A stretch of DNA of 64,000 nucleotides from NCBI RefSeq assembly GCF_013122565.1, contig NZ_CP053258.1; one strand, given 5' to 3'. The number at the start of each line of letters is the position of its first letter. Position 1 is the stretch's first letter. Shown in pieces: positions 8,065-8,158 of the stretch. A program made the translations under genes and the position numbers. Origin of the DNA: Escherichia coli. Its GTDB lineage: Bacteria; Pseudomonadota; Gammaproteobacteria; Enterobacterales; Enterobacteriaceae. The notes beneath the pieces are model-generated. The model made no database searches, was not told the origin of the DNA, and saw only the letters and a program-made list of their open reading frames with translations.

Positions 8065-8158
8065 ACCGGCGCAGAGGAGACAATGCCGGATTTAAGACGC
8101 GGATGCACTGCTGTGTGTACTGTAGAGTCTGGCGGATGTCGACAGACTCTATTTTTTT
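8065..8158 (+). ncRNA. mcaS: Small regulatory RNA McaS (IsrA)-like
   Basis: About 94 nt between smrA and abgR ending in hairpin agagtctggcggatgtcgacagactct plus T7; several GGA motifs (aGGAGa, ccGGAtt, gcGGAtg x2) as expected for a CsrA-binding sRNA; matches remembered McaS sequence. Confidence 0.6.

Follow-up and report, generated by a model that had tools for sequence, protein, structure and literature searches.

The small RNA gene mcaS in the smrA-abgR intergenic region of an Escherichia coli genome

The locus and the identity of its small RNA gene

The window analysed here is a 64,000-nucleotide stretch of Escherichia coli DNA (RefSeq assembly GCF_013122565.1, contig NZ_CP053258.1), read 5' to 3' on one strand. 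It carries the gene order zntB-dgcM-smrA-[mcaS]-abgR-abgA-abgB, the same as in K-12, and the names dgcM, smrA, abgR, abgA, and abgB were taken from RefSeq records that are 99.3-99.6% identical to the window over positions 7200-9200. Within this order, mcaS is divergent from smrA and convergent with abgR, near the abgR 3' end. The features that make up the locus are the following:

4783-5766, minus strand: ZntB (NCBIfam equivalog)
5961-7253, plus strand: GGDEF/PAS diguanylate cyclase, dgcM (NCBIfam equivalog)
7274-7837, minus strand: SmrA, smrA or ydaL (NCBIfam equivalog and RefSeq annotation)
8065-8158, plus strand: small RNA (sRNA) matching McaS, 94 nt according to the K-12 annotation; the Rfam model reaches 8160
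8167-9075, minus strand: AbgR-type LysR regulator, abgR (NCBIfam equivalog and RefSeq annotation)
9236-10561, plus strand: amidohydrolase (NCBIfam equivalog)
10561-12006, plus strand: amidohydrolase (NCBIfam equivalog)

Searched in full against Rfam 15 with the gathering thresholds applied, the window gave two matches, one to RF00115 (McaS/IsrA) and one to RF01796 (FnrS). The RF00115 match lies at 8065-8160 on the plus strand; its score of 118.4 bits (E = 1.9e-21) compares with a gathering score of 42, and it covers model positions 1-96 of 96 with a posterior probability of 1.00 throughout; the sequence of this interval is ACCGGCGCAGAGGAGACAATGCCGGATTTAAGACGCGGATGCACTGCTGTGTGTACTGTAGAGTCTGGCGGATGTCGACAGACTCTATTTTTTTAT. 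Positions 8065-8158 are identical at 94 of 94 bases to mcaS of K-12 MG1655 (b4426; synonyms isrA and IS061), which is annotated as an ncRNA on the minus strand of NC_000913.3 at 1405658-1405751, between abgR and smrA. The entire 329-nt smrA-abgR intergenic region differs from that of K-12 at only two positions, 7955 (G/A) and 7978 (T/C), both of which are upstream of the mcaS promoter elements. A first-pass annotation, made from the DNA alone, had described a McaS-like sRNA of about 94 nt on the plus strand between smrA and abgR and had proposed a covariance model scan, in which the lack of a match would count against it, and an alignment with K-12 mcaS as checks. The full-length match well over the gathering score and the complete identity in the same genomic slot support that description, the extent of 8065-8158 is exactly that of the K-12 annotation, and both flanking genes are borne out by the NCBIfam equivalogs and by RefSeq. 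Judged from these comparisons, the interval 8065-8158/8160 on the plus strand is very probably (roughly 97%) the mcaS gene, encoding an independently transcribed sRNA of about 95 nt. It is an already known gene with a sequence identical to the laboratory-strain copy, and nothing in the window is new in this respect. The host strain itself is not K-12; the best 2-kb match, at 99.6%, is to strain ET201.

The value of the finding is one of annotation only. Among the E. coli RefSeq genomes annotated with PGAP that were listed, 30 of 30 have no feature under the McaS match, so that no PGAP record in the sample (n = 30) annotates McaS; the curated K-12 record does annotate mcaS. Because of this absence, recovery of mcaS by an Rfam-type scan fills a real annotation gap. 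The second Rfam match, FnrS, lies at 4570-4687 on the minus strand, beyond the zntB 3' end, and is also full length (134.8 bits against a gathering score of 60); FnrS has likewise been reported to interact with CsrA (PMC10729762).

Promoter, structure, and interaction motifs of McaS

The elements recognised in and upstream of the RNA are given below.

8005-8020, plus strand: CRP-like palindrome CGTGA-AATCTG-TCACT, centred near -52.5 from the McaS 5' end
8029-8034, plus strand: -35 hexamer TTGGCA, read from the sequence, matching TTGACA at five of six positions
8053-8058, plus strand: -10 hexamer TATAAC, read from the sequence, with 6 nt between it and the 5' end at 8065
8066-8089, plus strand: stem-loop 1 (RNA nt 2-25), on which the Rfam structure and the minimum free energy (MFE) fold agree
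8076-8078, plus strand: GGA#1, in the 12-nt loop of stem 1
8088-8090, plus strand: GGA#2, straddling the 3' foot of stem 1
8097-8116, plus strand: stem-loop 2 (RNA nt 33-52), from the Rfam structure
8101-8103, plus strand: GGA#3, in the 5' arm of stem 2
8104-8119, plus strand: csgD seed UGCACUGCUGUGUGUA (RNA nt 40-55), complement of the K-12 csgD leader
8122-8158, plus strand: intrinsic terminator, with the helix at 8122-8152 (RNA nt 58-88) and U7 at 8152-8158
8134-8136, plus strand: GGA#4, in the apical loop of the terminator

The two promoter hexamers are separated by an 18-nt spacer, and the 5' end of the RNA is A8065. When 14 upstream regions from Escherichia, Citrobacter, Pseudescherichia, Trabulsiella, and related metagenome-assembled genomes were aligned, the -35 element was kept as TTGGCA, CTGGCA, or CTGGTA in 13, the exception being Trabulsiella, and the T, A, A, and A positions of the -10 hexamer were invariant in all 14. 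With these conserved elements mcaS has a sigma-70-type promoter of its own, divergent from smrA. It should be noted that a generic promoter and terminator scanner run over the window reported neither the mcaS promoter nor the mcaS terminator: the former was missed because the scanner requires a T at position 6 of the -10 hexamer, which TATAAC does not have, and the latter because, without 1-nt bulges, the apparent loop is 11 nt and exceeds the scanner's limit of 3-8 nt. These misses are artefacts of the rules and not evidence against either element.

Regulation by catabolite control has been reported for mcaS, which is activated by cAMP-CRP and is a member of the CRP regulon (PMC3634460). The palindrome at 8005-8020 has two mismatches to TGTGA-N6-TCACA, and matches of this quality are not above chance in the window (17 found versus 26 expected from shuffles). 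Its GTGA and TCAC half-sites are unchanged in 10 of 10 Escherichia and Citrobacter sequences, with a variable 6-nt spacer between them, and kept half-sites flanking a variable spacer are the pattern expected of a real dimer-binding site. Its centre near -52.5 is atypical, the classical positions being -41.5, -61.5, and -72.5. Since the match is at chance level and its centre is atypical, we infer rather than observe that the reported cAMP-CRP control acts through this putative site. A separate CRP-like site that is closer to consensus, CGTGAACCGGGTCACA, with one mismatch, is present at 9210-9225 on the plus strand between the divergently oriented abgR and abgA, a short way upstream of the abgA open reading frame (ORF).

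The Rfam consensus of McaS comprises three helices, namely stem 1 (nt 2-7/20-25), stem 2 (nt 33-38/47-52), and the terminator (nt 58-70/76-88, followed by U7). Folding with ViennaRNA gave an MFE of -31.0 kcal/mol (z = -2.3 against shuffles), and the MFE fold contains stem 1 and the terminator as in Rfam, with stem 2 shifted in register. The terminator helix has 10 + 2 base pairs and a GAUGU loop and amounts to -15.3 kcal/mol alone; together with the seven U residues it agrees with the canonical intrinsic terminator proposed in the first pass at 8122-8158. An A/U linker, AUUUAA, is also present. Published work describes a three-stem model in which stem 1 and the 5' third of the RNA are variable and stem 2, in its 3' half, and the stem 3 loop are conserved, in which stem 2 pairs with csgD and binds the RNA polymerase core, and in which the sequence of the terminator loop mediates flhDC activation (PMC4824073).

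A search with a pattern taken from the conserved 3' core of McaS found 13 species-level genomes, all with RF00115 scores between 69.6 and 108.7 bits, and these belong to Escherichia, Citrobacter, Pseudescherichia, Trabulsiella, and related metagenome-assembled genomes. In an alignment of 15 sequences, the terminator helix is 100% paired, and Trabulsiella has three compensatory pairs there, in which both partners have changed. For stem 2 the paired share is 82% over the 15 orthologues, and the changes are one-sided only, so the comparative data support this helix weakly. Stem 1 is 60% paired, a value that is understated because MAFFT mis-registers this stem between genera. This pattern agrees with the published description of variable and conserved parts given above (PMC4824073).

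RNA nt 40-55 form a perfect 16-nt Watson-Crick complement of positions -96 to -81 of the K-12 csgD leader, where the site reads UACACACAGCAGUGCA; the K-12 leader was used, the csgD of the source strain lying outside the window. Unconstrained RNAduplex predictions with the whole sRNA produced long, loop-ridden duplexes that were equalled by 5% (csgD) and 19% (flhD) of shuffles. As this was barely better than the shuffles, a contiguous-helix test was used instead, and in that test none of 1000 dinucleotide shuffles reached 16 nt against csgD, the longest helix being 10 nt. Among the 15 orthologues, nt 45-55 of the seed are invariant with the exception of C47, which is changed in one, nt 43-44 are nearly so, and nt 40-42 vary; the block of nt 43-57 that is invariant or nearly so lies in columns free of the constraint imposed by the search pattern. 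The complement fits the distal 'Binding Site 1' of csgD, which has been reported to be needed for McaS action in vivo and through which McaS, as a dual-function RNA, brings about Hfq- and RNase E-dependent cleavage of csgD (PMC6061853). For the flhD leader, the best specific match was 7 nt (loop nt 71-77 against -61 to -55) and was equalled by 49% of shuffles; the contiguous-helix test of the K-12-identical McaS thus found no flhD pairing above chance. Pairing of McaS with the flhD leader is reported to activate flagellar synthesis (PMC3634460, PMC4824073).

The plus strand of the RNA gene contains four GGA trinucleotides, starting at 8076, 8088, 8101, and 8134 (RNA positions 12, 24, 37, and 70). 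The first-pass annotation had placed all four in single-stranded or loop contexts. All four are indeed present, and base-pair probabilities leave GGA#1 (probability unpaired, 0.71/0.99/0.88) and GGA#4 (0.05/0.59/1.0) unpaired in their loops, but the G residues of GGA#2 (0.0/0.11/0.99) and GGA#3 (0.03/0.11/0.54) are predicted to be inside stems 1 and 2, with probabilities of at most 0.11. About 1.0 GGA would be expected per 96 nt at the rate of the window's plus strand, on which 1.2% of 96-nt windows hold at least four; at least four also occur in 10% of mononucleotide shuffles of the McaS 96-mer, and the count alone is therefore modestly unusual. In the 15 orthologues, GGA#3 is invariant (15/15) in columns outside the search pattern constraint, GGA#4 is invariant but inside the pattern and hence not countable, GGA#1 is kept in all with a shift of 1-2 nt in some, and GGA#2 is confined to Escherichia.

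The published account in PMC10729762 describes McaS as carrying four GGA motifs, binding two CsrA in vitro, and co-purifying with CsrA in vivo, lists pgaA, csgD, and flhD as its targets, and, citing Jorgensen 2013, identifies the 5'-most GGA as a CsrA site. Summarising the same work, it states that binding of CsrA by McaS relieves pgaA repression and that CsrA at the 5'-most GGA also enhances csgD repression. Such reports of CsrA binding and pgaA activation, along with the presence of four GGA, two of them in apical loops, and the conservation of GGA#1, #3, and #4 across genera, could be taken to indicate that mcaS is present but functions mainly as a dedicated CsrA sponge of the CsrB/CsrC kind, with base pairing being secondary. 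That reading is improbable. McaS has four GGA against 22 in CsrB and reportedly acts as a weaker sponge than CsrB/CsrC (PMC10729762); conservation is highest in the 16-nt csgD seed, along with the terminator loop; the literature terms McaS a dual-function RNA (PMC6061853); and the published csgD data point the other way.

Alleles, neighbourhood, and other readings of the region

At least 80% of the McaS 96-mer is covered in 3904 of 5304 matching E. coli genomes. In about a quarter of complete E. coli genomes, the match to McaS begins only at nt 21, the remainder being a divergent stem 1 allele, ACCGGTCACCAGGACCCCAGGCCGG. This allele, of the UTI89 type, shares with that of the window the promoter core, nt 21-96, the csgD seed, the terminator, and the stem 1 loop GGA. 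It differs in having another sequence in the loop and inner pairs of stem 1, where pair 7-20 is C-G in place of G-U, a compensatory change within E. coli, pair 6-21 is U-G in place of C-G, and the loop GGA is kept, and in carrying a C36A change. The two types also differ upstream, the window having the K-12-type allele without the following block of MFS, HlyD, and AraC genes, about 4 kb in length, that separates smrA from mcaS in UTI89-type genomes:

AF34 (L020), 4741-8910, and also UTI89 (L003): block of about 4 kb (MFS transporter, IS1, HlyD, AraC-family) in the interval between smrA and the mcaS promoter; compare window 7838-8085

The hairpin in which the alleles differ, stem-loop 1, is the one that presents the principal CsrA-binding GGA. 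E. coli thus has two alleles of mcaS, and it is conceivable, though unlikely, that their CsrA affinity or promoter activity is not the same and that they thereby produce phylogroup differences in the balance of curli, PGA, and motility; if so, the strain of the window would belong to the K-12-type regulatory class. Several further observations concern individual genomes. In UTI89, abgR is reduced to a pseudogene fragment adjoining ogt. In E. coli FDAARGOS_943 (L004, 401-851), homology to McaS ends at about nt 71, in the terminator loop, and a gene for an IS4-family transposase follows, such that mcaS appears to be disrupted by an insertion sequence. Lastly, 6 of the 5310 places that match the McaS 96-mer are on records labelled as plasmids, and these could be chromosomal contigs assigned to the wrong replicon or stretches of chromosome that have been captured.

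The synteny of the locus is identical to that of K-12 and most E. coli chromosomes: at least 80% of window positions 7200-9200, which span the dgcM 3' end, smrA, the sRNA, and abgR, is present in 3801 of 5426 E. coli genomes. The first pass had also placed the sRNA next to dgcM and had seen in the pair a small biofilm-regulatory neighbourhood. The juxtaposition is real in the window, although smrA lies between the two and 811 nt separate the dgcM stop (7253) from the McaS +1. As a conserved arrangement it was rejected, since it does not hold across the E. coli, Citrobacter, and Pseudescherichia loci: smrA and mcaS are kept apart in AF34/UTI89-type E. coli by other genes spanning about 4 kb, and in Citrobacter amalonaticus and Pseudescherichia vulneris no GGDEF gene is found beyond smrA, where IclR/CoA-transferase and DUF892/glycosyl-hydrolase proteins are encoded instead. 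The dgcM-mcaS juxtaposition is thus lineage-specific and not a conserved cluster. In C. amalonaticus (L015, 604-3055) and P. vulneris (L008, 4587-7024), mcaS lies between smrA and ogt-fnr without the abgRABT genes. Given that mcaS is found there without adjoining abg genes, the abg operon appears to have been inserted downstream of mcaS in the lineage of Escherichia.

The convergent arrangement with abgR raises the question of whether the hairpin at 8122-8152 is only the terminator of abgR, with the sequence upstream of it being untranscribed spacer. The hairpin is 15 nt past the abgR stop (8167-8169, minus strand) and could also impede abgR transcription. It is, however, followed by U7 on the plus-strand side only, the minus-strand side reading CAGUACACACAG with no U tract; a conserved plus-strand promoter is suitably spaced upstream; the covariance model, matched over its full length, takes in the 57 nt upstream of the hairpin; and Citrobacter and P. 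vulneris conserve the RNA with no abgR there and with ogt as the neighbouring gene. The chance that the hairpin serves abgR alone is accordingly minute, and this explanation was rejected on the strand of the U tract and the persistence of the RNA without abgR. Equally hard to credit is a small protein encoded by the 42-aa ORF at 8083-8211 (plus strand) or the 41-aa ORF at 8063-8188 (minus strand), which do appear in the mechanical ORF list and translate without stops, but it was rejected for want of a conserved start codon at 8083, which varies already within E. coli (ATG only in the K-12-type allele, AGG in other aligned Escherichia, namely UTI89-type and other E. coli, E. albertii, and E. 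whittamii, and ATA or AGT in Citrobacter), and furthermore the plus-strand ORF continues past the hairpin and the U tract of the terminator and on into sequence antisense to abgR, conservation follows the helices and seed and not codons, and the curated K-12 annotation is an ncRNA. An sRNA gene, mcaS, therefore remains the preferred reading of the region, and none of the observations speaks against it.

Predicted role and comparison with known systems

The identity of the RNA, its structure and motifs, its csgD seed, and the conservation of its promoter are direct results of the present analysis. Its expression, protein binding, and regulatory outcome in the source strain would be those published for K-12, a mechanism that we infer to transfer directly because the two RNAs are identical. 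The reported biology is that of an sRNA under CRP control by which cells are switched between curli, flagella, and PGA via Hfq-dependent pairing and CsrA binding. The Hfq dependence and the regulation of csgD, flhDC, and pgaA invoked in the first pass are reported in the literature for this exact sequence (PMC10729762, PMC6061853, PMC3634460), and experiments on Hfq binding and on the transcript of about 95 nt have been described for the identical K-12 RNA (PMC6061853, PMC4824073).

On this model, cAMP-CRP would switch mcaS on under carbon limitation, after exponential growth. Hfq would then bind McaS, presumably via the U tail and the A/U linker, and promote pairing of nt 40-55 with the distal site in the csgD 5'UTR, and this pairing would recruit RNase E, leading to destruction of the csgD mRNA and to curli being turned off. 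The terminator-loop region would pair with the flhD leader and open an inhibitory structure, thereby increasing flagellar synthesis. Independently, CsrA dimers would bind the GGA motifs, above all the loop GGA nearest the 5' end and the one that overlaps the region pairing with csgD, such that CsrA would be titrated off pgaA and synthesis of the PGA polysaccharide would rise; CsrA binding also appears to enhance csgD repression. A K-12-like McaS circuit is thus predicted for the source strain.

The RF00115 match belongs to Rfam clan CL00106, which presumably groups McaS with the Csr/Rsm RNAs. Like McaS, CsrB and CsrC bind CsrA via GGA in hairpin loops and relieve the repression of targets such as pgaA (PMC10729762). 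The scale differs, with CsrB having 22 GGA hairpins that accommodate about nine CsrA dimers and McaS having four GGA for two CsrA (PMC10729762), and McaS, unlike CsrB and CsrC, additionally works by Hfq-dependent base pairing. Set against the roughly 9-22 repeated GGA hairpins of CsrB/CsrC-type sponges, McaS has only four GGA, two of them in loops; it is partly sponge-like and is not a member of the dedicated sponges of that type. A second group of comparable RNAs consists of RprA, GcvB, OmrA/B, RydC, and RybB, which, like McaS, are Hfq-dependent and pair with the long csgD 5'UTR, RprA and GcvB also inducing RNase E cleavage of csgD as McaS does (PMC6061853). In contrast to McaS, these RNAs are unrelated to it in sequence, respond to other input signals, and have no comparable CsrA-titrating role reported. 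The closest system is McaS of K-12 itself. The copy in the window agrees with it in the promoter region, in the flanking genes and their orientation, in its three stems, in its four GGA, and in its csgD seed, and nothing within the RNA differs between the two.
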